This document shows, piece by piece, positions 3,562-64,000 of a DNA stretch of 64,000 nt. The translations under genes and the position numbers were made by a program. Source of the DNA: Desulfovibrio sp. (lineage in GTDB: Bacteria > Desulfobacterota > Desulfovibrionia > Desulfovibrionales > Desulfovibrionaceae). Position 1 is the first letter of the stretch. Every line of letters begins with the position of its first letter. A model generated the notes under the pieces. It saw only the letters and a list, made by a program, of their open reading frames with translations. It was not told the origin of the DNA and did not search any database. Where the stretch lies: NCBI GenBank assembly GCA_031288535.1, contig JAITRF010000060.1, positions 13,519 through 77,518 of the forward strand, in the 5' to 3' direction.

Positions 3562-4647
3562 TCACATGGCTTTGAAAAGAGACGTCAGCCTCTCCCGGTT
3601 CAGGATCGTCCTGAATTCCGGTCCAAGGGCGTTGGCCAGTGGTTTTTCATGGATTATCGAACCTTGGTACAGGGCCTCGTACTGCTCCTCCGTAAGATCC
3701 CGGCAGATCCCGGACGGAAGGGTGATTCTGTTTTTCTCCAGCATTTTCATAAAAAGGGAGTGCTCTGTCGGATAGATGTCGGAAAGCACGGACAGTGCGT
3801 AGCAGTTCGCCCTGCCATGCGGCAGATGCAGGACTATGGAGAGGCCGGCGGAAATGGGGTGGACCGCGCCGGTGTTTCCGGCAGCCATGCCTCCCAGATA
3901 CGAGGCTACCATCATGTTTTCCAGGTTTCGTTCCTCCATCATGTCTCCGGAGCCGAGGAAGATGTCCGTGCAGACGGCGACGGCCGCAGCGGAAAGACGA
4001 TCTACTATCACATTGCGGTAGCTGCCGCGTTGAGATTCAAAACAGTGCATGAAGGTGTCGAGGCCGGTGAAAAAAAACTGTTCCCTGGGCACGGTGCGCG
4101 TCAGGGCCGGGTCCAGAACAAGCTGGTCGTATACGGTGAAATCGCTGTTCATGCCGAGTTTGAGCCTGCGCCGCATATTGGTCAGCACACAGGTGCGCGA
4201 ACATTCCGCCCCGGTTCCGGACAGGGTAGGCACCCCTATCTTGTAAACCGCGGGATTTTTAACCAGATCCCAGCCCTGGTAGTCCTCGGCCTTTCCGGGA
4301 TTGCTCAGGAGATTGGCCACGGCCTTGGCCGCGTCCAACACGCTTCCTCCCCCGATGCCCGTGATGCAGCACGGCACGCGGGTTCCCAGTTCTTCCTTCA
4401 GCGAGTCTGCCAAAGCGTCGATATACTCGACGGTCGGCTCGCTTGACGTGTCCACAAAAATCAGCTTGTCGCGTTTTTTGAGGGGAAGGGGCAGAACAGC
4501 GGCGTCCCTGAAAAAATGGTCGACATAAAAGACCGCCGGGGCGTCGGCAGGATCGCGCCGGGCGTCGATTAACGCCCCGAGCTGGCCGAAGGCGCCGAAG
4601 CCGAGCAGGTAATAAGGCACATTTTTGGTATTGCGGGTGACGGACAT
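3562..4647 (-). CDS. Iron-containing (class III) alcohol dehydrogenase / DHQS-like oxidoreductase
   Basis: ORF 3562..4665. The ATG at 4647 has AAGGGA upstream. GIGGGSVLDAAKAV and PTLSGTGAE are typical Fe-ADH-family motifs. Confidence 0.8.
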   Translation of the reverse strand: MSVTRNTKNVPYYLLGFGAFGQLGALIDARRDPADAPAVFYVDHFFRDAAVLPLPLKKRDKLIFVDTSSEPTVEYIDALADSLKEELGTRVPCCITGIGGGSVLDAAKAVANLLSNPGKAEDYQGWDLVKNPAVYKIGVPTLSGTGAECSRTCVLTNMRRRLKLGMNSDFTVYDQLVLDPALTRTVPREQFFFTGLDTFMHCFESQRGSYRNVIVDRLSAAAVAVCTDIFLGSGDMMEERNLENMMVASYLGGMAAGNTGAVHPISAGLSIVLHLPHGRANCYALSVLSDIYPTEHSLFMKMLEKNRITLPSGICRDLTEEQYEALYQGSIIHEKPLANALGPEFRTILNRERLTSLFKAM

Positions 4648-4845
4648 CGTAATCCCTTGCGGCAAGGAGAACCAGCCGGCATTTTAAATCATTTCGCGGT
4701 TCCAGAACCGGCTTACGCCGCTTCGCGGCGCGTCAGCCTTGCGGCTGATGTTGGATTCGACGCGGAAATCTATAATTGAGGCGGCTTCGGAAGTCAAGAA
4801 AGAGGATCGCCGCAGGGCGGACGCATCATATTCTTCACGTACGCC

Positions 4846-4972
4846 CAGAGCATTTTACGCTTGAAATGCTTGATTAACGGCGAGCGAAGCTCGCCTGCAA
4901 GAATTTCGCGGCAAGGATTTGCGAACAAATCCTTGCAGAGCAGCTCAACTTTTCAAAGTTGAACTGCTCTAG
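4846..4972 (-). repeat. Full copy of the tri-palindromic ~120-bp intergenic repeat (reverse orientation)
   Basis: The reverse complement aligns along its whole length with the copies at 21378, 52228 and 62758: ctagagcagttcaactttgaaaagttgagctgctc / gcaaggatttg..caaatccttgc / gaaattcttgcaggcgagcttcgctcgcc..caagcatttc / aagcgtaaaatgctc. Confidence 0.95.
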
Positions 4973-6215: not shown

Positions 6216-6311
6216 CTAGGGCAGTTTACGTCTGAGATTGTCGCTTAACTGCCAGGCAAGTTTGCCTTGCGACAATCCCGCGGCAAGGATTTGCAGGCAA
6301 ATCCTTGCCGC
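6216..6311 (-). repeat. Partial copy of the intergenic repeat (tail + hairpin 3 variant + hairpin 2; hairpin 1 missing)
   Basis: ctagggcagtttacgtctgagattgtcgc..gcgacaatc..gcggcaaggatttgcaggcaaatccttgccgc. The tail and hairpin 2 are homologous to full copies. Hairpin 3 has a different but still self-complementary stem. Confidence 0.85.
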
Positions 6312-6384
6312 TCGGTTTATATATTTTCAATGTTAAACCACTCTGATACGCTATTCTGTATACATTTTCAGGTGTTACAGCGTA

Positions 6385-12798: not shown

Positions 12799-13086
12799 AT
12801 GTAGCCAAACTGGAATCCCTGGCACGGCTGCCGAAAATTCAGCCTCGGCTACCTGAACTGCTATGTCTGCCGCCTGGATGCAAAATTCGGGCGTGACCCT
12901 TCGATCTTTTCCCTGACCGACTCCTGCCTTTTGCCACTCGCCACGTACCGGGGCGGCAAAAACAAGGGCGAGTTCAGGTTGAAGCCTGATGGCAGCTATG
13001 TTTACACTTGTTTTTCCTCCGAATGTTCTCACGAAACTATCCTGCCTTGCAGAGCAGTCCAACTTTTCAAAGTTGAAATGCTATAA
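12799..13086 (+). pseudogene. N-terminal fragment of a phage Gp37/Gp68 (DUF5131)-like gene, with a stop at codon 2, truncated by a repeat copy
   Basis: My own translation: ATG TAG then PNWNPWHGCRKFSLGYLNCYVCRLDAKFGRDPS...SYVYTCFSSECSHE. This resembles the WNPW.GC.k.S.GC.nCYa N-terminus of DUF5131 proteins. The frame runs into hairpin 1 of the repeat and stops at TAA 13084. Confidence 0.45.
13045..13086 (-). repeat. Partial copy of the intergenic repeat (end of hairpin 2 + hairpin 1)
   Basis: ccttgcagagcagtccaacttttcaaagttgaaatgctataa matches the hairpin-1 end of copy 4846..4972. Confidence 0.8.
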
Positions 13087-19183: not shown

Positions 19184-19338
19184 TCACATCACTCGCGTTG
19201 GATAAAAACTGAAGCTGTCATCCATAATAAATTTAGTGGGCGAAACAACCGGATGCGGCAGAACTTTATTCCCAAGCGTAAACTGTTTTAGTGGCCTTCA
19301 AGGCGGCGTTATGTCATTTTCGTTTAAAATCGCGTAGG

Positions 19339-19983
19339 TCAACAGTCAGGGAAATCCTCGCCAGGCGGCAGACGCTCCCAAATAATCCTGCCCCGGCTTT
19401 TTTTGAACTTGCGCAGCAGCACATACACCGCTCCCGCCCCGCCGTCTTTGGCCTGGGCCGTGCAAAAAGCCAGCACGACGCGCTTGAACGGCACGCGGCA
19501 CAGCCATTGCCGAAGCATGGGACGCAATACGCCCAGGCCTTCCGGAGAATTTCTGCCTCGGCCGGTGATTACCGTCACACAACGTTGGTTTTTCACATAA
19601 GCCTGTCTGATGAAACGGAGCAGTGCATCGTAAGCCTGCCTCGCGTTCATGCCGTGCAGGTCGATATGCCCTTCCTGGCTGTAAGTGCCCGCGCGCAGGC
19701 GGCTGAGTATGCAGGGGTCCAGATCTAGTACCGAGCCTTCAAAATATTCACCGCTGTGCAAAAAGGCGAATTTGGCGTTGTCCTCCAACAGTTCGTACGG
19801 GCTTTTTTCCGGAATGGGCCGTGGCGCACGAGGCAAAGGCAAAGAAGGAGGGGTGACGCTCCGGCCTTTGCCGCCTACGGGCTTCACGTCTTTGGTCGCG
19901 TCCGCGAAAAGGTTTTTATCTTCCGGCGTCAGCATGTTTATCCGCAACCGCGATGCTTGGCGTATTTCAGAGCGGAGCGACAT
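19339..19983 (-). CDS. Smr-domain protein (MutS2 C-terminal-like endonuclease domain)
   Basis: IDLHGMNARQAYDALLRFIRQA...VTVITGRGRNS is an Smr domain signature. Confidence 0.8.
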   Translation of the reverse strand: MSLRSEIRQASRLRINMLTPEDKNLFADATKDVKPVGGKGRSVTPPSLPLPRAPRPIPEKSPYELLEDNAKFAFLHSGEYFEGSVLDLDPCILSRLRAGTYSQEGHIDLHGMNARQAYDALLRFIRQAYVKNQRCVTVITGRGRNSPEGLGVLRPMLRQWLCRVPFKRVVLAFCTAQAKDGGAGAVYVLLRKFKKSRGRIIWERLPPGEDFPDC

Positions 19984-19984
19984 T

Positions 19985-20094
19985 GAGAATGTTCATCCGC
20001 TCTGCACGGATTTACCTGCAAATCCTTGTCGCAAGATTGCCGCAAGCGGGCTTTGCCCGCCATTAAGCGGCAACATCAAGCGCAAAATGGTTTA
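19985..20094 (+). repeat. Near-complete, diverged copy of the intergenic repeat, filling the whole hypB-smr spacer
   Basis: ..ccgctctgcacggatttacctgcaaatccttgtcgcaagattgccgcaagcgggctttgcccgccattaagcggcaacatcaagcgcaaaatggttta. The final TTA is the complement of the hypB TAA stop. Confidence 0.85.
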
Positions 20095-20754
20095 CGACCC
20101 GGCAAGTTTGGCCTGTCGTGCCTTGCGCAGGTAGGCGTACCAGGCGTCCAGTCCATCGCCGCTACGGCATGACAGGGGCAGCACGTTCAAGTCCCCGTTC
20201 AGTTTCCTGGCGAACCGCTCCGCCCGCTCAAGGCTGAAATCCACATAGGGCAAAAGATCGATCTTGTTCAAAACCAGCACAGCGGCAAGATGGAAGAGCA
20301 GGGGGTATTTTTCCGGCTTGTCGTCACCCTCCGTGACGCTTAAAACAGCCGCGATCCCGTCCTGACCGCAGTCAAACTCCACCGGGCAAACCAGGTTGCC
20401 GATATTCTCAATAAACAGGATATCCAGACCCTCAAGAGGAAATTCTTCTATGGCCCTGCGTACCATCAACGCGTCGAGATGGCAGCCTCCGCCTGTGTTG
20501 ATCTGAAAGACCCTGGCGCCGACGGCGGCGATGCGGCGGGCGTCGTTGTCGGTCTGCAAGTCGCCCTCGATCACCCCCATGGAGAATTCTTCGCGCAAAT
20601 CCATGAGCGTGCGTTCCAAAAGCGCCGTCTTTCCCGCTCCCGGCGAGCCGATCAGATTGAGCACCAACAGAGAGCGTGCGGCAAAGGAGCTTCTCAGCTC
20701 CTTCGCAATTTTATCGTTGAACTCCAAAATATTATGTCCAAGCGTCTCGTCCAT
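20092..20754 (-). CDS. hypB: Hydrogenase nickel-incorporation GTPase HypB
   Basis: ORF 20092..20802; likely start MDETLGHN at 20754. GSPGAGKT P-loop and ENIGNLVCPVEFD motif. Confidence 0.9.
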   Translation of the reverse strand: MDETLGHNILEFNDKIAKELRSSFAARSLLVLNLIGSPGAGKTALLERTLMDLREEFSMGVIEGDLQTDNDARRIAAVGARVFQINTGGGCHLDALMVRRAIEEFPLEGLDILFIENIGNLVCPVEFDCGQDGIAAVLSVTEGDDKPEKYPLLFHLAAVLVLNKIDLLPYVDFSLERAERFARKLNGDLNVLPLSCRSGDGLDAWYAYLRKARQAKLAGS

Positions 20755-20776
20755 GCCCGCCTCCAGGCAAACGGCC

Positions 20777-21136
20777 TCAATCCGCCGCCAACATATAATC
20801 AATGCATAATTCCCGGCCCGCCAGCACCTTGTGTCCTATTTCCTCTCCGCACTTCGGGCAGGGAGAAATCAGCGCCGCCGGAAAACCGTGCGCCGTAAAT
20901 TCTGCGCCGCATCCGCCGCAGGCTAGGCGCAGAGGCTCTTCGACCAGTTCCAGGCGTGTAGCGGCGAATTCCGTATCGGCCGCCATGAGCGTGAAAGCCG
21001 TTTCCAAGGCCTCGGGCGATGCATTGCTCAGAGCTCCGCAACGCAAGCGCACCAGGGAAAGTCCCTTGAGGCCGCGTTGTGCCGTTTCCGCGCGCAGCAA
21101 CTCCAGAAGGGAGAGGATCAGGGAAGCTTCATGCAT
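20777..21136 (-). CDS. hypA: Hydrogenase maturation nickel metallochaperone HypA
   Basis: MHEASL N-terminus (Ni site) and CGGCG..CPKCG zinc motif. Confidence 0.9.
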   Translation of the reverse strand: MHEASLILSLLELLRAETAQRGLKGLSLVRLRCGALSNASPEALETAFTLMAADTEFAATRLELVEEPLRLACGGCGAEFTAHGFPAALISPCPKCGEEIGHKVLAGRELCIDYMLAAD

Positions 21137-21377
21137 CGCTTTCAGGATATGCCAAAAGCGACCTTATGCCAAGAAGCGCGCTTGTGGGTTTTCCGGCAGG
21201 CTCAATTCGTCAGGCAGGGGAAGCTCCGGGTTCTGAAGGTATAAATTCAATGCGCAATCTGGAGTGGGTCGCTTCCGCCGCTTTTTTGAGAGTGGATACG
21301 GATGGAGTATATGTGGAAGATTCCAGTTGGGTGGTAGCTGATTGCGTAGTACTCAATTTTTCAACCAGTTCCTCAAG

Positions 21378-21498
21378 TAGTTCAACTTCGAAAAGTTGTC
21401 CTGCTCTGCAAGGATTTGCTTGCAAATCCTTGCCGCGAAATGCTTGTAGGCGGGCTTGCCCGCCGTCAAGCAAGCATTTCAAGCGTAAAATGCTCTAG
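21378..21498 (+). repeat. Full copy of the tri-palindromic intergenic repeat
   Basis: tagttcaacttcgaaaagttgtcctgctc / tgcaaggatttgcttgcaaatccttgc / cgcgaaatgcttgtaggcgggcttgcccgccgtcaagcaagcatttc / aagcgtaaaatgctctag. Confidence 0.95.
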
Positions 21499-21998
21499 AT
21501 ATTTTCTAGACCCTGTGAGCGCTTGCTTTGATTCTTCATTCGATCGCCCTGATTGTGGTGGCCGGAGATATAGACAAAAATATTGATTGCGTATATAAAA
21601 CACCCTAAAGGCAAGGTGGGAGTTTCCGCGCCTGGCAAGCAGCCGGGCCGGAAGCCGTTTCATAAATCGATTTTGTGAGGCTTCCGCTGTCCCCAGGCGG
21701 AGTAACCGCCATAACCAAGCCGAAAACCGCGCTTTTCGGCTAATGTTCTTCTCATAATCGACCGTCAGGTTAATAATGAGATATCATGCAGCCGTGTGGA
21801 CGCCTCGGGCGTAACCTCCGGGGCAGCCGGACGGCGGAGGGCGTCCCCTGTCACCGTAGACCCGGGAGTGCGCCTGTTTTTGCAAACCCGCAGGGTTTGT
21901 CGCCGGTCCGGGGGGAGGCAAACGCCCCCGCCTTTGTTCGCAAGTGTAAGAAACAATGCGCCTTCAAACTCCGAAACGTTACCAAGCGGGGTGAATGC

Positions 21999-31953: not shown

Positions 31954-32212
31954 TGCGATAAGGTGTAGGCGAAACTTTAACCCGCTGTCAAGCGCCGGAA
32001 ACAAGCGTGAAATAATTTAAGGAAGGACTGATTAATTGGGGCTCCGCCCCAAACCCCGCCGGGGGAGCGCCAGCCGTAGGCTAGGTTCCGAGCCGTACGG
32101 ATGGCGACAGCAGCGATAATGATTTCCCCCGGACCCCCTCGATAGTAACTCACTGAAATATCTCTTGGGAGTACAGAGGGCAAAGCCATCTCAAAAATAA
32201 ATCAGTGTTTCC

Positions 32213-45964: not shown

Positions 45965-46064
45965 GATACATATCTACGTACGTCGCCAAAAGCGGCGTAA
46001 CTTGTCGAAAAACCACGTTTTTTCTGTGCGATTTTATCGTTTCCCAAGCCTTGTGGAGGCAATA

Positions 46065-46082
46065 TCAAGCCCAAAATGCTAT
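46065..46082 (+). repeat. Tail-only fragment of the intergenic repeat, overlapping the stop of the radical SAM gene
   Basis: atcaagcccaaaatgcta compared with the consensus ttcaagcgtaaaatgctcta. The upstream ggaggcaatatc also occurs in copy 53849..53935. Confidence 0.45.
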
Positions 46083-47209
46083 AAGGCGCGCATCCACTCC
46101 TTACGCAGGGAGATTCTGCCGTCCAGGGCGGCGTTTATGCGTTGCAGAGTTTTTTCCCTGTCCTCCGGCAAGTGTGCCCGGATGGTCAGATAATTGCTGG
46201 CGTGGTTGGCCATGAACCAACCGCCGCTGAGTCTGGTGTTCGCGAACATCAGACCGAGTTCCTGAACGAAATCCAGTCCTTCGGGCAAAACCAGCTCTCC
46301 GCTTCGCACCCGTTCGTAAATCGGGGCATCTTCCGAAAGCATCAGGGAGAGGGCGCCGACGTATTCAGGGTCTATGGCGCTCAGCACCCGCCCGGTTTCA
46401 ATGGCGTGCTCCCGGCTTTTGTCCATCCCGGCGAGGCCGAGAATCACCGTCACCGACAAGGCGAACCCGGCTTTTTTCAGCCTCAGCGCCTGCTCGACAA
46501 GCTTTTCCGGGGTGGAACCTTTTTTTATATCTTTAAGCACCTCAGGATGTCCGCTCTCGATCCCGTAATAGATCAGCGACAGGCCCATTTCGCGCAGGCG
46601 CCTGAGGTCCTCGTCGCTCTTAAGTGCCACGCCCTTGGCGTTGCCGTAAGTGGAGACGCGTTCCACCCAGGGCAGGCGTTCGGATATGTTGGAAAGCAGC
46701 CATTCCCAATGGCGCATCGGCATTATCAGGGCGTCCCCGTCCATGACGAAAAGCCGCGTTTGTCCGCGACAGTATTTTTCCGCAAACTTCAGGTCTTTTT
46801 CCCAGATGTTCCTGTCCTTGATGGCAAAACGCTTTTCCTTGAAAGCGCTGCAAAAGGAGCACTTATTGTGCGAACAGCCCAGGGTGGCCTGAAACAGGAT
46901 GCTGTAGGCCTCGCTGGGCGGACGAAAACAAAAGCCCTGATGGTCCAGACCTTCACATTCAAAAAACACGCCCGACTCCTTTGATAATACCGGTTTGCCT
47001 GCAAAGCGGGCTTGAAGCTTTACGCCTGATTTCGCAAAAACGCCGGCGGCAGGAAGCCCGCCGTCAGGTTGCCTCGGGTTATATACTTGTTGTAAGGCAA
47101 CTTGGTATAAGTTCAGATAGTAAACATCGGGCGTCGTTTGTCCAGAGGGAGTGAAACAAATTGCCGGGGGCTTGCCAAAAGAGCGGCTTCGTGCCACAAG
47201 GTTGCGCAC
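46079..47209 (-). CDS. Radical SAM domain protein of unknown specificity
   Basis: CSHNKCSFC (CxxxCxxC) cluster motif, followed by an Elp3/HemN-like TIM-barrel pattern (YYGIESG). Confidence 0.8.
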   Translation of the reverse strand: MRNLVARSRSFGKPPAICFTPSGQTTPDVYYLNLYQVALQQVYNPRQPDGGLPAAGVFAKSGVKLQARFAGKPVLSKESGVFFECEGLDHQGFCFRPPSEAYSILFQATLGCSHNKCSFCSAFKEKRFAIKDRNIWEKDLKFAEKYCRGQTRLFVMDGDALIMPMRHWEWLLSNISERLPWVERVSTYGNAKGVALKSDEDLRRLREMGLSLIYYGIESGHPEVLKDIKKGSTPEKLVEQALRLKKAGFALSVTVILGLAGMDKSREHAIETGRVLSAIDPEYVGALSLMLSEDAPIYERVRSGELVLPEGLDFVQELGLMFANTRLSGGWFMANHASNYLTIRAHLPEDREKTLQRINAALDGRISLRKEWMRAL

Positions 47210-51226: not shown

Positions 51227-52082
51227 TACGCTGAGGAAATTGCTGACGGCCGCCGGGCGGGTTCCCTGGACCGCCTTGCGCCGCCTTGCGCGCATCCTGG
51301 CCTTTTTCTTCTGGCATTTCGCCCCGTCGCGTAGAAACGAGGCGGTCAATGCAATACATAAACATCTTAAAGTATCACATGAAGAAGCTTTGCGTCTAGC
51401 CAGGCAGAGTTTTGCGGAAAATTTTCTGTCGTTTTTGGAAATCCTGCATGCGAGCCGTTTTTTCACGGAACAATCGGTACGCGTTCTTTATACCCCGGAA
51501 GTGAAAGCGATGCTTCAAGCTGAAACGAGACCGGTTATTATAGCCACCGCCCATCTGGGTTCCTGGGAATTGATGCCCGGTCTGGCCGCGGATATTCTCC
51601 CTCAACGCGAGGGCATGGTAGTCGTGCGCAGCCGCAGGAACAAGACTTTGAACCGAATTATTGCCGAACTGCGCGGGGCGCGGGGCATGCTGGTCATAGA
51701 CCATCGCAGGGCTGCGGAAATTCTGCTGCCCAAACTGCGCAATGGAGGCGTCGCGGCTTTTCTGGTGGATCACAACACGAACCGCAGGGAAGCAGTCTTT
51801 CTGCCTTTTCTTGAGGACACGGCGGCAGTGAATATGGGGCCGGCCAGCATCGCCCTGCGCGCCAAAGCGGCTGTGTATCCTGTTTTCCTGCTGCGGGACG
51901 GCAAAGGCGGACATGTCCTGCATATGCTGGCGCCTTTGCATACGGAAAATCTGGAGGGAAACGTACGGGAACGGGTCGTGAAAACAGCGCGTTTTTACAC
52001 CGAAGCTGTGGATAAAATGGTGCGCATGTATCCGGAACAATGGTTCTGGATGCACAGACGCTGGAAGACCAGAGAGGATTAG
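51216..52082 (+). CDS. Lipid A biosynthesis (Kdo2-lipid IVA) acyltransferase, LpxL/HtrB family
   Basis: ORF 51150..52082; GTG 51216 is preceded by GGAAGGAG. ATAHLGSWELMPG (HX4E/D acyltransferase motif). Confidence 0.75.
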   Translation: MLYSTLRKLLTAAGRVPWTALRRLARILAFFFWHFAPSRRNEAVNAIHKHLKVSHEEALRLARQSFAENFLSFLEILHASRFFTEQSVRVLYTPEVKAMLQAETRPVIIATAHLGSWELMPGLAADILPQREGMVVVRSRRNKTLNRIIAELRGARGMLVIDHRRAAEILLPKLRNGGVAAFLVDHNTNRREAVFLPFLEDTAAVNMGPASIALRAKAAVYPVFLLRDGKGGHVLHMLAPLHTENLEGNVRERVVKTARFYTEAVDKMVRMYPEQWFWMHRRWKTRED

Positions 52083-52107
52083 AGCAATTTCACTTTGAAA
52101 TTGCTCT
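52080..52107. repeat. Solo hairpin-1-like module of the repeat family, starting in the TAG stop of the lpxL-like gene
   Basis: TAGAGCAATTTCA-CTT-TGAAATTGCTCT has a perfect 12-bp stem. Compare hairpin 1: tagagcagttcaactttgaaaagttg..gctc. Confidence 0.75.
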
Positions 52108-52227
52108 GGCGGCCGCGCGAGCGGACGCCCGCCGCGAAGGCGCAAACGCAATTTATTTGCGCGGTTAAGCGCCGGAGCGGGCGCGGCCTGAAGATAAACC
52201 CTGTATAATCTCAAAGTTAAAGTGAAT

Positions 52228-52349
52228 TAAGCAGTTCAACTTTGAAAAGTTGGACCGCTCTGCAGGGATTTGCTTGCAATTCCTTGCCGCGAAATGCTTA
52301 CAGGCGAGCGAAGCTCGCCTGTAAGCATTTCAAGCGTAAAATGCACTAG
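52228..52349 (+). repeat. Full copy of the tri-palindromic intergenic repeat
   Basis: ttaagcagttcaactttgaaaagttggaccgctc / tgcagggatttgcttgcaattccttgc / cgcgaaatgcttacaggcgagcgaagctcgcctgtaagcatttc (perfect 19-bp stem) / aagcgtaaaatgcactag. Confidence 0.95.
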
Positions 52350-59461: not shown

Positions 59462-59594
59462 ATTTCTCCTCTGTCTCCTCTTGCGGCGCGCGCTTGGAGC
59501 GACCGGGCGCGGCGAACGGCGACCTGCTTGCGGCGGGCGCGCCTCAACGCCTTTCCCGTGCCTTTCTGAAAAAGCCGTTTTTGAAACGTGCTTC

Positions 59595-59630
59595 GCCGTC
59601 AGGCGACAATCTCAAGCGTAAAATGCTCTA
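59595..59630 (+). repeat. Partial copy of the intergenic repeat (3' arm of hairpin 3 + tail), overlapping the rapZ stop
   Basis: gccgtcaggcgacaatctcaagcgtaaaatgctcta. The final CTA is the complement of the rapZ TAG. Confidence 0.8.
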
Positions 59631-60551
59631 TCCGAGCTCCAGATGCCGGTGTTCCAACGTGGGAGAATAGTTTTTTTCTCTGAACGCCTCGGCAAGGGCT
59701 TCAGCCACGGCAACCGAGCGGTGTCTGCCGCCGGTACAGCCGATAGCCACGGTAAGCCTGTAGCGTCCCTCTTTTTCGTTCTGTTTCAGAATAAATTCCA
59801 GAAATGCCAGAAGTTTGGTAAAAAACTTCCGGCCCTGGCCGTTTTTAAGAACGTAATCCCGCACCGGCGCATCCAACCCGGATAAGGGTTTAAGTTCAGG
59901 TATGAAATAAGGATTCGGCAGAAAGCGCAAATCGAAGACCATATCCGCTTCGGACGGGGTTCCGTATTTGAAGCCGAACGTGACAAGATGGATTTTGAGA
60001 TTTCGTGTGAGTTTGCTGAACATGCCCCATTTGGTCTGGATAAGGCGGCGCAGATCGTGGATGGAATGAGACGAGGTATCCATAACCAGATCCGCGCTTT
60101 TGCGCAGGTGCCGCAGGCGATAGCGCTCCTGCGCCATGGCCTGCTCAAGCCCCAGACCCTCTTTTTCCAGAGGGTGCGGTCTTCTCGTGGTCGCATAGCG
60201 TTTCAGAAGGATATCGTTGTTCGCTTCAAAAAAAATGACGCGGGGAACAAAGCCCTGAGAGGTCAGATCGTTCAGCGCCCCGTCCCAACCTTGAAGGAAA
60301 TCGCTTTGGCGCAAGTCCATCCCCAGAGCCACACCCCGGTATTTATCCAGGCCGTGTTCGCGGATCATCTTCGCCATGGGCACGGCAAATTCCACCGGCA
60401 GTCCGTCCACTGTAACGAAATTCATGTCCTCGAACACTGCCAGAGCGGTGCTTTTCCCGGAACCGGACAGGCCTGTTATGATGACCACCGCGATATTGTT
60501 CGCCCCGGCAGCGACAGAAAGCGATCCTGACGGAGAGACCCCGACTGCCAT
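59628..60551 (-). CDS. rapZ: RNase adapter / P-loop NTPase RapZ (YhbJ)
   Basis: VVIITGLSGSGKSTAL, FFLDARN-like region and C-terminal CTGGRHRSVA motif. Confidence 0.9.
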   Translation of the reverse strand: MAVGVSPSGSLSVAAGANNIAVVIITGLSGSGKSTALAVFEDMNFVTVDGLPVEFAVPMAKMIREHGLDKYRGVALGMDLRQSDFLQGWDGALNDLTSQGFVPRVIFFEANNDILLKRYATTRRPHPLEKEGLGLEQAMAQERYRLRHLRKSADLVMDTSSHSIHDLRRLIQTKWGMFSKLTRNLKIHLVTFGFKYGTPSEADMVFDLRFLPNPYFIPELKPLSGLDAPVRDYVLKNGQGRKFFTKLLAFLEFILKQNEKEGRYRLTVAIGCTGGRHRSVAVAEALAEAFREKNYSPTLEHRHLELG

Positions 60552-62587: not shown

Positions 62588-62757
62588 GCGAAATCCTTAT
62601 CTGTTTCATGCATATTGCCATAGTTTACTTTTTTATGCAAGCTTTGTGCCTTATTTGTCAAATATAATGTTTTCGCCGCTGCAAGCCATTCCGGAAGCTC
62701 TATGCAAGTGATTTTGATCAGGCGCGTTGACCGGAGACTGCGCTTTTCCGGCTCGGG

Positions 62758-62879
62758 CAAGTTCAACTTTGAAAAGTTGGACCGGTCCGCAAGGATTTAC
62801 TTGCAAATCCTTGCCCCGAAATGCTTGTAGGCAGGCTTTGCCCGCCGTTAAACAAGTATTTCAAGCGTAACTGCTCTAG
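62758..62879 (+). repeat. Full copy of the tri-palindromic intergenic repeat
   Basis: caagttcaactttgaaaagttggaccggtc / cgcaaggatttacttgcaaatccttgc / cccgaaatgcttgtaggcaggctttgcccgccgttaaacaagtatttc / aagcgtaactgctctag. The final CTA is the complement of the TAG stop of the next gene. Confidence 0.95.
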
Positions 62880-64000
62880 TGCCGCCTCTTCTCGAAGACC
62901 AGAAGGTTTTCCACGTGCGGGCTGTAGGGGAACATGTCCAGAGGCAGACTTTTCAGCGCCCGCCAGCTCCCGCTCAGGCGCAAGGCATCGCGTGCCTGAC
63001 TTGCCGGGTTGCAGGAAACATAAAGCAGACGGCGGGCCGGCACGGCAAGCAGCAGTTCGATCAGGGCATCGGGCAGCCCAAAACGCGGCGGATCTGCAAT
63101 GACGAGGTCCGGCGCAGGCAGATTGCACGCCGCATCGGGAAAATTCAGATCGCAGACATGAAAAAAACAGTTTGACAGGCCGAGGGCGCCGGCATTTTCC
63201 CGGGCACAGGCTACCGCTTCGGGCGAGACTTCAGCCCCGTGGACAAACGCCGCAGACCTTGCCAGAAACATGGCTATACAGCCGACCCCAGAGAACAGAT
63301 CCCAGACAATATCCCTGGAACACGCCTTCGCCTCCCCGGCGACAAGTTCGAAAAGACGCAACGCGACCTTTGTGTTCGTCTGCAGAAAGGCATTGTATGG
63401 GGCTTTTGCCGTCACATGTCCGAAGGATTCAAGATAGGTATCCGAACCGAAGCTTTGCACTTTTTTTTCTCCATAGGCGATATCCGAACGCGCGCGGCGT
63501 TCCGTATGCACAAAACCCGTCAGGGCAAAGCGCTCCATCAGCCTCTCCCCCAGCATGTGCAGTTTCTCAAGCCGGGTGAAGCCTGCGCCGTCGTTGGCGA
63601 TGTCGTCTCCCTGCCCCGCCTTGTCCCGGACAAGGTGGTCCGGTCCGCTGATAACCTCAATCAGCAGCTGTCGCCTGCCGTCTGGCATATATTCCGGGCT
63701 GTGCGCCACCAGCCTGCGCAGATAGCCGGGGTCTCCGGACAATGCCCCTTTCCCGGCGGCATTGCGCACAGGCTTCCCCCAAGCCGGAATGCCGAGACGA
63801 TTTACTTCCCGGCGCACGTACTCCAGCAGCCGCATCACAGTCGCATCCTGGGCTACGCAATGAGTCGTCTCAATGAGCCTGAGTCCGTCTCTGCCGCGCA
63901 AGCCCAGGAGAACCTCGTCGTTCCCGGCCGGAGCGAATGCGTAGGATACTTTGGCGCGCCAGGCGAGTTTGCGTGCCGAGGGTTCTACGGGGCTTATATC
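62876..64000 (-). CDS. RumA/TrmA-family SAM-dependent RNA (uracil-5-)-methyltransferase (5' end runs off the right edge of the window)
   Basis: DLFSGVGCIAMFLA, ADPPRFGL and YVSCNPAS motifs. The frame stays open from 63901 to 64000 (..DISPVEPSARKLAWRAKVSYAF..), so the true start lies outside the window. Confidence 0.8.
   Translation of the reverse strand, partial: DISPVEPSARKLAWRAKVSYAFAPAGNDEVLLGLRGRDGLRLIETTHCVAQDATVMRLLEYVRREVNRLGIPAWGKPVRNAAGKGALSGDPGYLRRLVAHSPEYMPDGRRQLLIEVISGPDHLVRDKAGQGDDIANDGAGFTRLEKLHMLGERLMERFALTGFVHTERRARSDIAYGEKKVQSFGSDTYLESFGHVTAKAPYNAFLQTNTKVALRLFELVAGEAKACSRDIVWDLFSGVGCIAMFLARSAAFVHGAEVSPEAVACARENAGALGLSNCFFHVCDLNFPDAACNLPAPDLVIADPPRFGLPDALIELLLAVPARRLLYVSCNPASQARDALRLSGSWRALKSLPLDMFPYSPHVENLLVFEKRRH

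Follow-up and report, generated by a model that had tools for sequence, protein, structure and literature searches.

A Covarying Hairpin in a Desulfovibrio Repeat as the Third Palindrome of a ~121-bp Non-Autonomous DNA Transposon (MITE)

Introduction

Do compensatory changes in the stems of a repeated hairpin point to a functional RNA of the host, or can they belong to the DNA of a mobile element? This question is raised by a repeat of about 125 nt in a 64-kb stretch of Desulfovibrio DNA (the window), which holds six full copies of it as well as truncated ones. A preliminary description, made from the window alone, reported that the third hairpin of one copy (positions 21437–21480) shows compensatory substitutions and a conserved GTTAA bulge. 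This was taken to imply selection on structure, such as that on a terminator or stabiliser, a protein or transposase recognition hairpin or an sRNA, and was said not to be expected of neutrally decaying repeats.

Hairpin 3 and the Repeat Copies of the Window

The density of the repeat in the window is about one copy per 10 kb. The tail pattern had 5 matches (0.05 expected by chance) and the hairpin-2 pattern had 6 (0.00 expected by chance). The copies are as follows:

4846–4971, minus strand: copy A, with the best-preserved ends (TA...TG), between divergent genes
6217–6345, minus strand: copy B, of the GATTGTCGC/GCGACAATC subfamily, between convergent genes
19968–20094, plus strand: copy C, of the GATTGCCGC subfamily; its last three bases are the stop codon (TAA) of the gene 20092–20802 (minus strand)
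21373–21497, plus strand: copy D, the full repeat, with its body at 21375–21495 and an nhmmer score of 120–130 bits
52227–52348, plus strand: copy E, with hairpin 3 as a perfect 19-bp stem without the bulge
62754–62878, plus strand: copy F; CTA at 62876–62878 is the stop codon (TAG) of the gene 62876–63901 (minus strand)
59589–59630, plus strand: truncated copy, the 3′ half of hairpin 3 and the tail
13045–13085, minus strand: truncated copy, the left end and hairpin 1 only

The left terminus of copy D is degenerate, with TC AAGTAG in place of TA GAGCAG. The ORFs adjoining the truncated copy at 13045 had no Pfam match. The parts of copy D are:

21376–21405, plus strand: hairpin 1, formed by the left terminal inverted repeat as the 5′ arm and an internal copy of the right-end sequence as its partner
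21408–21433, plus strand: hairpin 2, GCAAGGATTTGC-TT-GCAAATCCTTGC, with the general form GCAAGGATTTGC-NN-GCAAATCCTTGC
21437–21480, plus strand: hairpin 3, the third palindrome of the ~121-bp element, based on fold and covariation
21437–21447 paired with 21470–21480, plus strand: basal stem of hairpin 3, 11 bp
21449–21455 paired with 21458–21464, plus strand: apical stem of hairpin 3
21465–21469, plus strand: 3′ bulge, GTCAA here, with the consensus GTTAA
21481–21497, plus strand: tail, made up of the right terminal inverted repeat (AAGCGTAAAATGCTC) and the duplicated TA

Read directly, positions 21437–21480 are GAAATGCTTGT-A-GGCGGGC-TT-GCCCGCC-GTCAA-GCAAGCATTTC, a two-tier hairpin with a 3′ bulge, exactly where it had been placed. 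All the stem versions listed in the preliminary description were found in the six copies. The basal stem reads GAAATGCTT(G/A).../...(C/T)AAGCATTTC in four of them, GATTGTCGC/GCGACAATC in the copy at 6217 (minus strand) and GATTGCCGC/GCGGCAA(C)ATC in that at 19968 (plus strand), and the apical stem occurs as GGCGGGC, GGCGAGC and AGGCAA. The perfect 19-bp stem, attributed earlier to a copy at 52228, is that of copy E, and the unpaired GTCAA, GTTAA or ATTAA on the 3′ side is indeed present in five of the six copies. The sequence conservation described for the tail is accounted for by its identity: it forms the right terminal inverted repeat of a mobile element. Hairpin 3 folded as DNA with z = −2.8 to −11.6 against dinucleotide shuffles in all six copies, and the entire copy D formed three hairpins (z = −7.1 as RNA and −7.4 as DNA).

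Covariation of the Paired Positions

Relatives were harvested by a scan of one genome per species, using a pattern that prescribed 11 nt in the 3′ arm of hairpin 2 and another 11 nt at the beginning of the tail; therefore, these two parts look more conserved among the harvested copies than they are. The pattern placed no restriction on hairpin 3. At least 107 loci matched, and among the matches listed about 70 were from MAGs labelled Desulfovibrio, Desulfovibrionaceae or Deltaproteobacteria, the rest being from scattered taxa. A sequence-only profile search (nhmmer, two rounds) gave at least 112 non-overlapping copies in the window and in the loci of 14 Desulfovibrio-type MAG assemblies (about 0.6 Mb of DNA), the window's own genome being absent from the harvested loci. 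Among the matches listed, no nhmmer copies were found in about 35 unrelated loci, which had matched the pattern by chance. Also, a blastn search of the element against PLSDB plasmids gave no match.

It should be noted that some copies lie at the extreme ends of the harvested stretches, either at the start (L003, L099, L105, L059) or at the end (L054, L097, L101, L081). The repeat may break short-read MAG assemblies where the end of the stretch is the end of a contig (L003, L099, L105, L059, L054, L097 and L101). The L081 copy was cut by the boundary of an 8-kb block, not by a contig end.

The basal stem was indexed by distance from the flanking anchors in 73 unique hairpin-3 sequences, so structure played no part in the alignment. 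Basal pairs 1–7 were Watson–Crick in 64–69 of the 73 sequences despite two or three pair types at several positions (A-T/G-C; T-A/C-G; G-C/T-A/A-T; C-G/G-C). The 11-bp basal stem occurs in at least 15 versions whose pairing is complete or nearly so.

Double changes from a Watson–Crick pair were counted by parsimony on pair states along a neighbour-joining tree of 92 unique copies, with a generous null of 4/9 for a double change that keeps pairing. In the basal stem, 24 double changes kept pairing and 5 broke it (p = 2.6e-5), and in the apical stem the ratio was 12 to 1 (p = 4.6e-4); these counts are approximate, as the tree was computed from 124 columns of repeats that recombine. When the hairpin-3 columns were left out of tree building, the covariation result became stronger. 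In a MAFFT alignment of 65 unique full copies (A1), 91.2% of the cells were paired versus 80.9% after shuffling, and 125 cells were changed on both sides versus 38 (0/500 shuffles reached this value), with 10–33 in slid controls. Twelve of the 18 hairpin-3 pairs change on both sides. RNAalifold, which had been proposed as a check, recovers all three hairpins.

Consequently, the compensatory changes first seen in six copies are significant in a larger, structure-blind alignment. It had been considered that the variants might merely reflect a few subfamilies, each copied without paired changes. The subfamilies differ by paired changes and several of them coexist in single genomes, and this objection therefore falls away.

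The bulge behaves differently from the stems, and the claim of a conserved GTTAA held for its shape and not for its letters. A 3′ excess of at least 3 unpaired nt is kept in 57 of the 73 unique hairpin-3 sequences, but its bases have only average conservation (5.6 parsimony steps per site versus 3.6–6.5 elsewhere; 3, 6, 11, 3 and 5 steps at the individual positions). Some relatives carry a fully paired form, GCTTAAC...GTTAAGC.

The attC sites of integrons have paired RYYYAAC/GTTRRRY cores and extrahelical bases and form cassette arrays beside an integrase. GTTAAGC agrees with GTTRRRY, but this family lacks the 5′ partner, and the copies are single, dispersed and bounded by TA and inverted termini. 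An attC site was therefore rejected.

Identity and Insertion of the Element

The repeat is a non-autonomous DNA transposon (MITE) of about 121 bp of a Desulfovibrio lineage. Its ends are TA-GAGCAG...ATGCTC-TA, with ~121 bp between the TA dinucleotides, which is too small for a transposase (the MITE limit is ~400 bp). Full copies read TA-GAGC(A/G)...GCTC-TA, the sequence outside being unrelated, and neighbouring elements have one TA in common. Among the 62 copies with both ends in reach, TA was found at both ends in 38 and at one end or more in 60. The base before the left TA is T, C or A and that after the right TA is G or A, which gives a target preference for (Y/A)-TA-R sites. The terminal inverted repeats are imperfect and about 22 nt long (left GAGCAGTTYAACTTTGAAAAAG, reverse complement of the right end GAGCATTTTACGCTTGAAATGC), with a mean identity of 13.3/22 versus 5.8 ± 2.0 in shuffled sequences (62 copies). 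These are defining features of MITEs (PMC10969869, PMC3184786).

The boundaries were established by comparison with a third repeat family, into which the element has inserted:

L062 7052–7177, L092 5683–5808 and L024 1602–1727: filled sites, which read GGCGCT-TA-element-TA-ACGG
L092 3285–3416, L003 230–350 and L083 4540–4650: uninterrupted copies, which read GGCGC-T-TA-ACGGCGAAA

The empty site is base-exact, and the insertion point is a TTAA beside the third family's own hairpin. It follows that the element is GAGCAG...ATGCTC, ~121 bp, and that TA is duplicated on insertion. The TTAA of the bulge was also considered as a favoured target for nested insertion and rejected, with one example in another family and none in this MITE.

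Orthologous loci give the same picture of presence and absence. The orthologous sites of L062 and L108 lack copy F, which the window has between a tRNA-methyltransferase gene and rpoN (the sigma-54 of L108 is 84% identical to that of the window), and one L071 copy is absent from the orthologous locus in L098. The rapZ stop reads GGT-TAG-cagc in L108 and GGA-TAG-AGCATTTTACGC in the window, where the truncated copy at 59589–59630 starts. The empty-site 22-mer predicted for copy A had 0 matches in the metagenome scan.

The copies supply stop codons to neighbour genes. These stops are built from the duplicated TA and the terminal G of the element (TAG; TAA in copy C) and were found at ~18 of 70 junctions across all loci, including 62876–62878, 59628–59630 and 20092–20094 of the window; the second of these is the CTA of the truncated copy and ends the rapZ-like gene 59628–60551 (minus strand). 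To judge from the junctions, the TA of stop codons is evidently a frequent target, and the insertion restores a stop and leaves the length of the ORF unchanged. The L062 orthologue of the gene beside copy F has TGA at the same codon position.

It was also observed that many copies are flanked by other repeats; thus, the elements cluster.

Decay of Inserted Copies and Possible Host RNA Roles

In the largest subfamily (24 copies, 5.4% mean divergence), the consensus has no broken pair in any helix, and its members have about 1.2 on average. Within subfamilies, the hairpin-3 stems diverge by 4.0% per site versus 5.4% in the loop, bulge and spacers beside them (p = 0.12); for the variable stems taken together, the divergence is 4.6% versus 4.9% at unpaired sites (p = 0.70). 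Most one-sided stem changes fall on terminal branches, and wobble pairs are not favoured among them: G.T to A.C was 24:21 for the basal and 19:15 for the apical stem; after re-orientation to the transcript of the gene reading into the element, G.U to A.C was 58:55. In tandem-gene contexts, the element is oriented with the genes in 21 cases and against them in 21, while 14 copies lie between convergent genes and 7 between divergent genes, based on a home-made dicodon caller that was spot-checked against one Pfam call at one locus (the Fe-ADH gene 3562–4665, minus strand).

These divergence, orientation and wobble data indicate that inserted copies decay roughly neutrally, with no sign of a strand-specific RNA role. 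The statement that covariation excludes decaying repeats did not hold: these MITE copies do decay, and truncated remnants are found in the window itself. Since the hairpin-3 stems are under no measurable constraint within subfamilies, any selection on structure would have to be read from the long-term patterns, which could also come from templated mutation.

RNA roles are known for transcripts of REP, ERIC and Correia elements. Could hairpin 3 likewise be selected as an RNA structure of the host, that is, as a 3′-end stabiliser or processing site, a terminator or attenuator, or a part of an sRNA? The element folds very stably as RNA (z = −7.1), its palindromic hairpins fold in either orientation, many copies lie directly after the 3′ ends of genes, and known MITEs affect mRNA stability and processing (PMC10969869, PMC3184786). 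However, no terminator-like, U-tract or promoter-like site was found inside the element, and Rfam 15 gave 0 matches both over the window at the gathering score and over 21300–21600 at E ≤ 1. The balanced orientation (21:21) and the G.U to A.C ratio of 58:55 in the transcript frame also speak against such a role, as do stems decaying as fast as unpaired sites within subfamilies, the 7 copies between divergent genes and the remnants left to decay. We consider selection on a host RNA very unlikely.

Two particular candidates were rejected on the sequence around the hairpin. An intrinsic terminator, which is a G+C-rich hairpin with a U run immediately behind it, does not agree with the lack of a terminator-like site in the element, hairpin 3 being followed directly on its 3′ side by AAGCGTAAAATGC. 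An outward promoter in the tail, with TAAAAT as −10 and the bulge as −35, was below the scan criteria.

The terminator, stabiliser and sRNA readings of the preliminary description are thus not supported, and the selection on structure that it proposed can be upheld for the mobile element only. Recognition by a transposase or another protein, or a DNA structure, remains compatible with the data. As inserted copies decay and carry no host RNA signal, the covariation is best read as a constraint on those lineages that keep transposing.

Source of the Paired Changes

Based on the above results, we suggest that hairpin 3 is probably a cis feature of the MITE, its covariation coming from source lineages that stay in transposition, with some help from templated errors. 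The process may be as follows. Elements whose palindromes can fold as DNA, by fold-back or as a cruciform in a very short element, would go on propagating, and the paired changes would arise in those source lineages that go on being copied. Errors of replication templated by the hairpin may assist by carrying a change across to the opposite arm. After insertion, a copy would decay at about the neutral rate. A hairpin of such an origin would be a cis feature of the parasite and not a host RNA gene, terminator or stabiliser.

A contribution of hairpin-templated mutation is probable because in four copies hairpin 3 has been made perfect by clustered changes or insertions exactly opposite the bulge:

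L048 5531–5660 (L048_5531): gained TTGTC opposite GACAA
L090 118–244 (L090_121): GTTAA changed to TGCAA, complementary to TTGCA
window 52227–52348 and L041 ~2342–2421 (L041_2342): without the bulge, carrying ACA/TGT

These changes look templated, like the signature of template switching within a hairpin. Template switching creates and maintains hairpin stems and is a documented source of compensatory change (PMC8794818).

It is therefore worth asking whether the same MITE could have acquired its paired changes without any selection. In such a case, the nascent strand would switch template within the hairpin (quasipalindrome correction), and a mutation in one arm would be either erased or copied across. 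The four perfected copies agree with this, since separate point mutations would hardly give such multi-base changes opposite the bulge. Double changes are often transversion flips (C-G to G-C), which do not pass through a wobble pair. Neither strand nor wobble asymmetry is seen, the stems show no constraint within subfamilies, and the mechanism itself is documented in hairpins (PMC8794818). On the other hand, 57 of the 73 unique sequences still have the 3′ bulge together with the 1-nt 5′ spacer, in subfamilies that differ at 4–6 stem positions per arm. This counts against templating alone because frequent copying from arm to arm should have erased both. In addition, 66 one-sided changes of the basal stem persist uncorrected. 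The polarity of the loops is also kept: among hairpin-2 loops, CT, TT, CG and TC far outnumber AG, AA and GA, and the hairpin-3 loop is TTT, so switches of the whole hairpin must be rare. Loop inversion, the mark of such switches, was not seen in the harvested copies. Therefore, an origin with no selection at all seems rather unlikely to us. It should be noted that the data fit both weak selection on source elements and short-patch templating, without a separation of the two.

Internal Palindromes and Mobilisation

Hairpin 1 covaries as strongly as hairpin 3, with 9 of 11 pairs changed on both sides and with 25 double changes that kept pairing versus 6 that broke it. Hairpin 2 is of another kind: its sequence is conserved across subfamilies and genomes, and it shows no covariation. 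Its central dinucleotide is hypervariable (25% versus 1.7% divergence within subfamilies; 18.5 versus 1.9 steps per site), and all 89 of its 89 occurrences lie inside the element. The conservation of hairpin 2 is partly an ascertainment effect of the search pattern; in copies outside the pattern selection (18 from the loci and 6 from the window), the hairpin-2 arms are 2–5 times less diverged than the stems of hairpin 1 and the basal stem of hairpin 3. Hairpin 2 could be a protein-binding site, and it is the one feature that could repay experiments.

No transposase was found between left-end and right-end pairs 135–3500 bp apart in the harvested DNA, nor between TA-flanked GAGC...GCTC pairs 700–2200 bp apart with at least 16/22 matches to the terminal inverted repeats. 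Also, there were no multi-copy proteins among the 452 predicted proteins of the harvested loci. As the DNA searched contains no autonomous element or transposase with these ends, we infer mobilisation in trans. Judging by its TA duplication, the element presumably belongs with the IS630/Tc1-mariner type or with an IS5-family group that has GAG ends. MITEs derived from IS630/Tc1-mariner elements duplicate TA at an NTAN target and are mobilised by a DDE transposase of that family; the TA duplication and a (Y/A)TAR-like target were both seen, and a DDE transposase was not found in the DNA searched. The terminal inverted repeats are short, and subfamilies differ in the inner portion of the left one, a variation that would be unusual in a sequence read by a transposase. 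To our knowledge, a DDE cut-and-paste transposase does not need internal hairpins.

It may be supposed that the functional core of the element is its internal palindromes, hairpin 2 by sequence and hairpins 1 and 3 by fold only, and not the weak inverted termini. Such a core would be mobilised, or bound by a host protein, in a structure-dependent way that still leaves a TA duplication. We regard this proposal as improbable, and we know of no such arrangement among bacterial MITEs.

A related proposal is that the element was moved as single-stranded DNA by a hairpin-recognising enzyme (REP/RAYT or an IS200/IS605-type Y1 transposase), with hairpin 3 and its bulge as the recognition structure. 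The element does contain three imperfect palindromes, one of them with a kept bulge similar to the extrahelical bases that such enzymes read, and the internal palindrome 2 is better conserved than the termini. However, comparison with empty sites shows a duplicated TA, one on either side of the element, which also has terminal inverted repeats, and no Y1 transposase gene was seen beside the copies. Furthermore, orientations are mixed within a few kb in single 8-kb loci, so there is no replication-strand bias. Mobilisation of this kind therefore appears extremely improbable. As for the corresponding classes, REP/BIME repeats are palindromes of 20–40 nt that carry a conserved 5′ tetranucleotide and go with a RAYT gene, and they make no target duplication; elements derived from IS200/IS605 have neither inverted termini nor a duplication, insert on the 3′ side of a fixed tetra- or pentanucleotide and show strand bias. 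A REP/BIME (RAYT-associated) element was ruled out by the TA duplication, the inverted termini and the lack of a Y1 transposase near copies, and an IS200/IS605-derived palindromic element by the same TA on both sides and by the mixed orientations.

Comparison with Known Repeats

Bacterial MITEs with TA target duplication include the Correia elements (CREE) of Neisseria and RUP of Streptococcus pneumoniae. Both are similar to the Desulfovibrio element in their length (100–200 bp), terminal inverted repeats, TA duplication, stable predicted folds and subfamilies, as well as in their hundreds of intergenic copies and their clustering or nesting with other repeats. There is no sequence similarity between them and the Desulfovibrio element. 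Correia elements and RUP fold mainly as one long end-to-end hairpin, whereas the Desulfovibrio element forms three local palindromes; it also differs in that an internal palindrome is most conserved, not the termini, and in that no promoter or IHF-like site was detected.

The ERIC/IRU and REP/BIME repeats of enterobacteria are likewise intergenic, palindromic, highly repeated and often located just 3′ of genes. However, REP/BIME has no target duplication and is tied to RAYT transposases, ERIC is one long imperfect palindrome, and both are without the TA-GAGC...GCTC-TA ends.

General features of MITEs have been described (PMC10969869, PMC3184786). The bcr1 repeat of the Bacillus cereus group is MITE-like, ~155 bp long and transcribed, with a 5-bp duplication (PMC3184786). 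Like the Desulfovibrio element, bcr1 has a structure of several stems upheld by compensatory changes, and single copies differ in stability and lose their fold (PMC3184786). At the same time, bcr1 differs from it in phylum, in the 5-bp duplication and in its unrelated sequence. Quasipalindrome mutation (PMC8794818) resembles what was found here in that clustered changes turn an arm into the exact complement of the other and give paired changes without stepwise selection. Its description concerned rRNA and other genes rather than MITE palindromes, and most Desulfovibrio copies keep the uncorrected bulge. No such repeats are mentioned in papers on the genomes of related Desulfovibrio symbionts (PMC5322295, PMC7608387).

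The MITE family, undescribed in the literature searched, is abundant in uncultured Desulfovibrio-type genomes, and its copies can be taken wrongly for structured RNA genes. This is a caution for RNA discovery based on covariation: even significant compensatory change is no proof of a host-level RNA function when the palindrome is DNA of a mobile element, because selection at the level of the element and templated mutation give the same signal.

Other Repeats and Spacers of the Window

A member of a second repeat family is located at 52079–52228 (plus strand) and abuts copy E. It has the same termini (TAGAGCAATTTCACTTTGAAATTGCTCT...) and a different interior, so several families share one set of ends. 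This repeat is 89–94% identical to copies in L071 and L095 and also holds a hairpin with a 3′ GGTTAA bulge.

In addition, decayed fragments similar to the right end (tail) were found at 19272–19291, 31983–32019 and 46047–46084, with 3–4 mismatches to the tail consensus, which is consistent with old, eroded insertions. The spacer at 62588–62700 just upstream of rpoN (GCGAAAACATTATATTTGACAAATAAGGCAC..AGCTTGCATAAAAA) is almost identical to L108 4073–4182, while the remaining spacer differs. This near-identical stretch is probably a conserved promoter or regulatory region.
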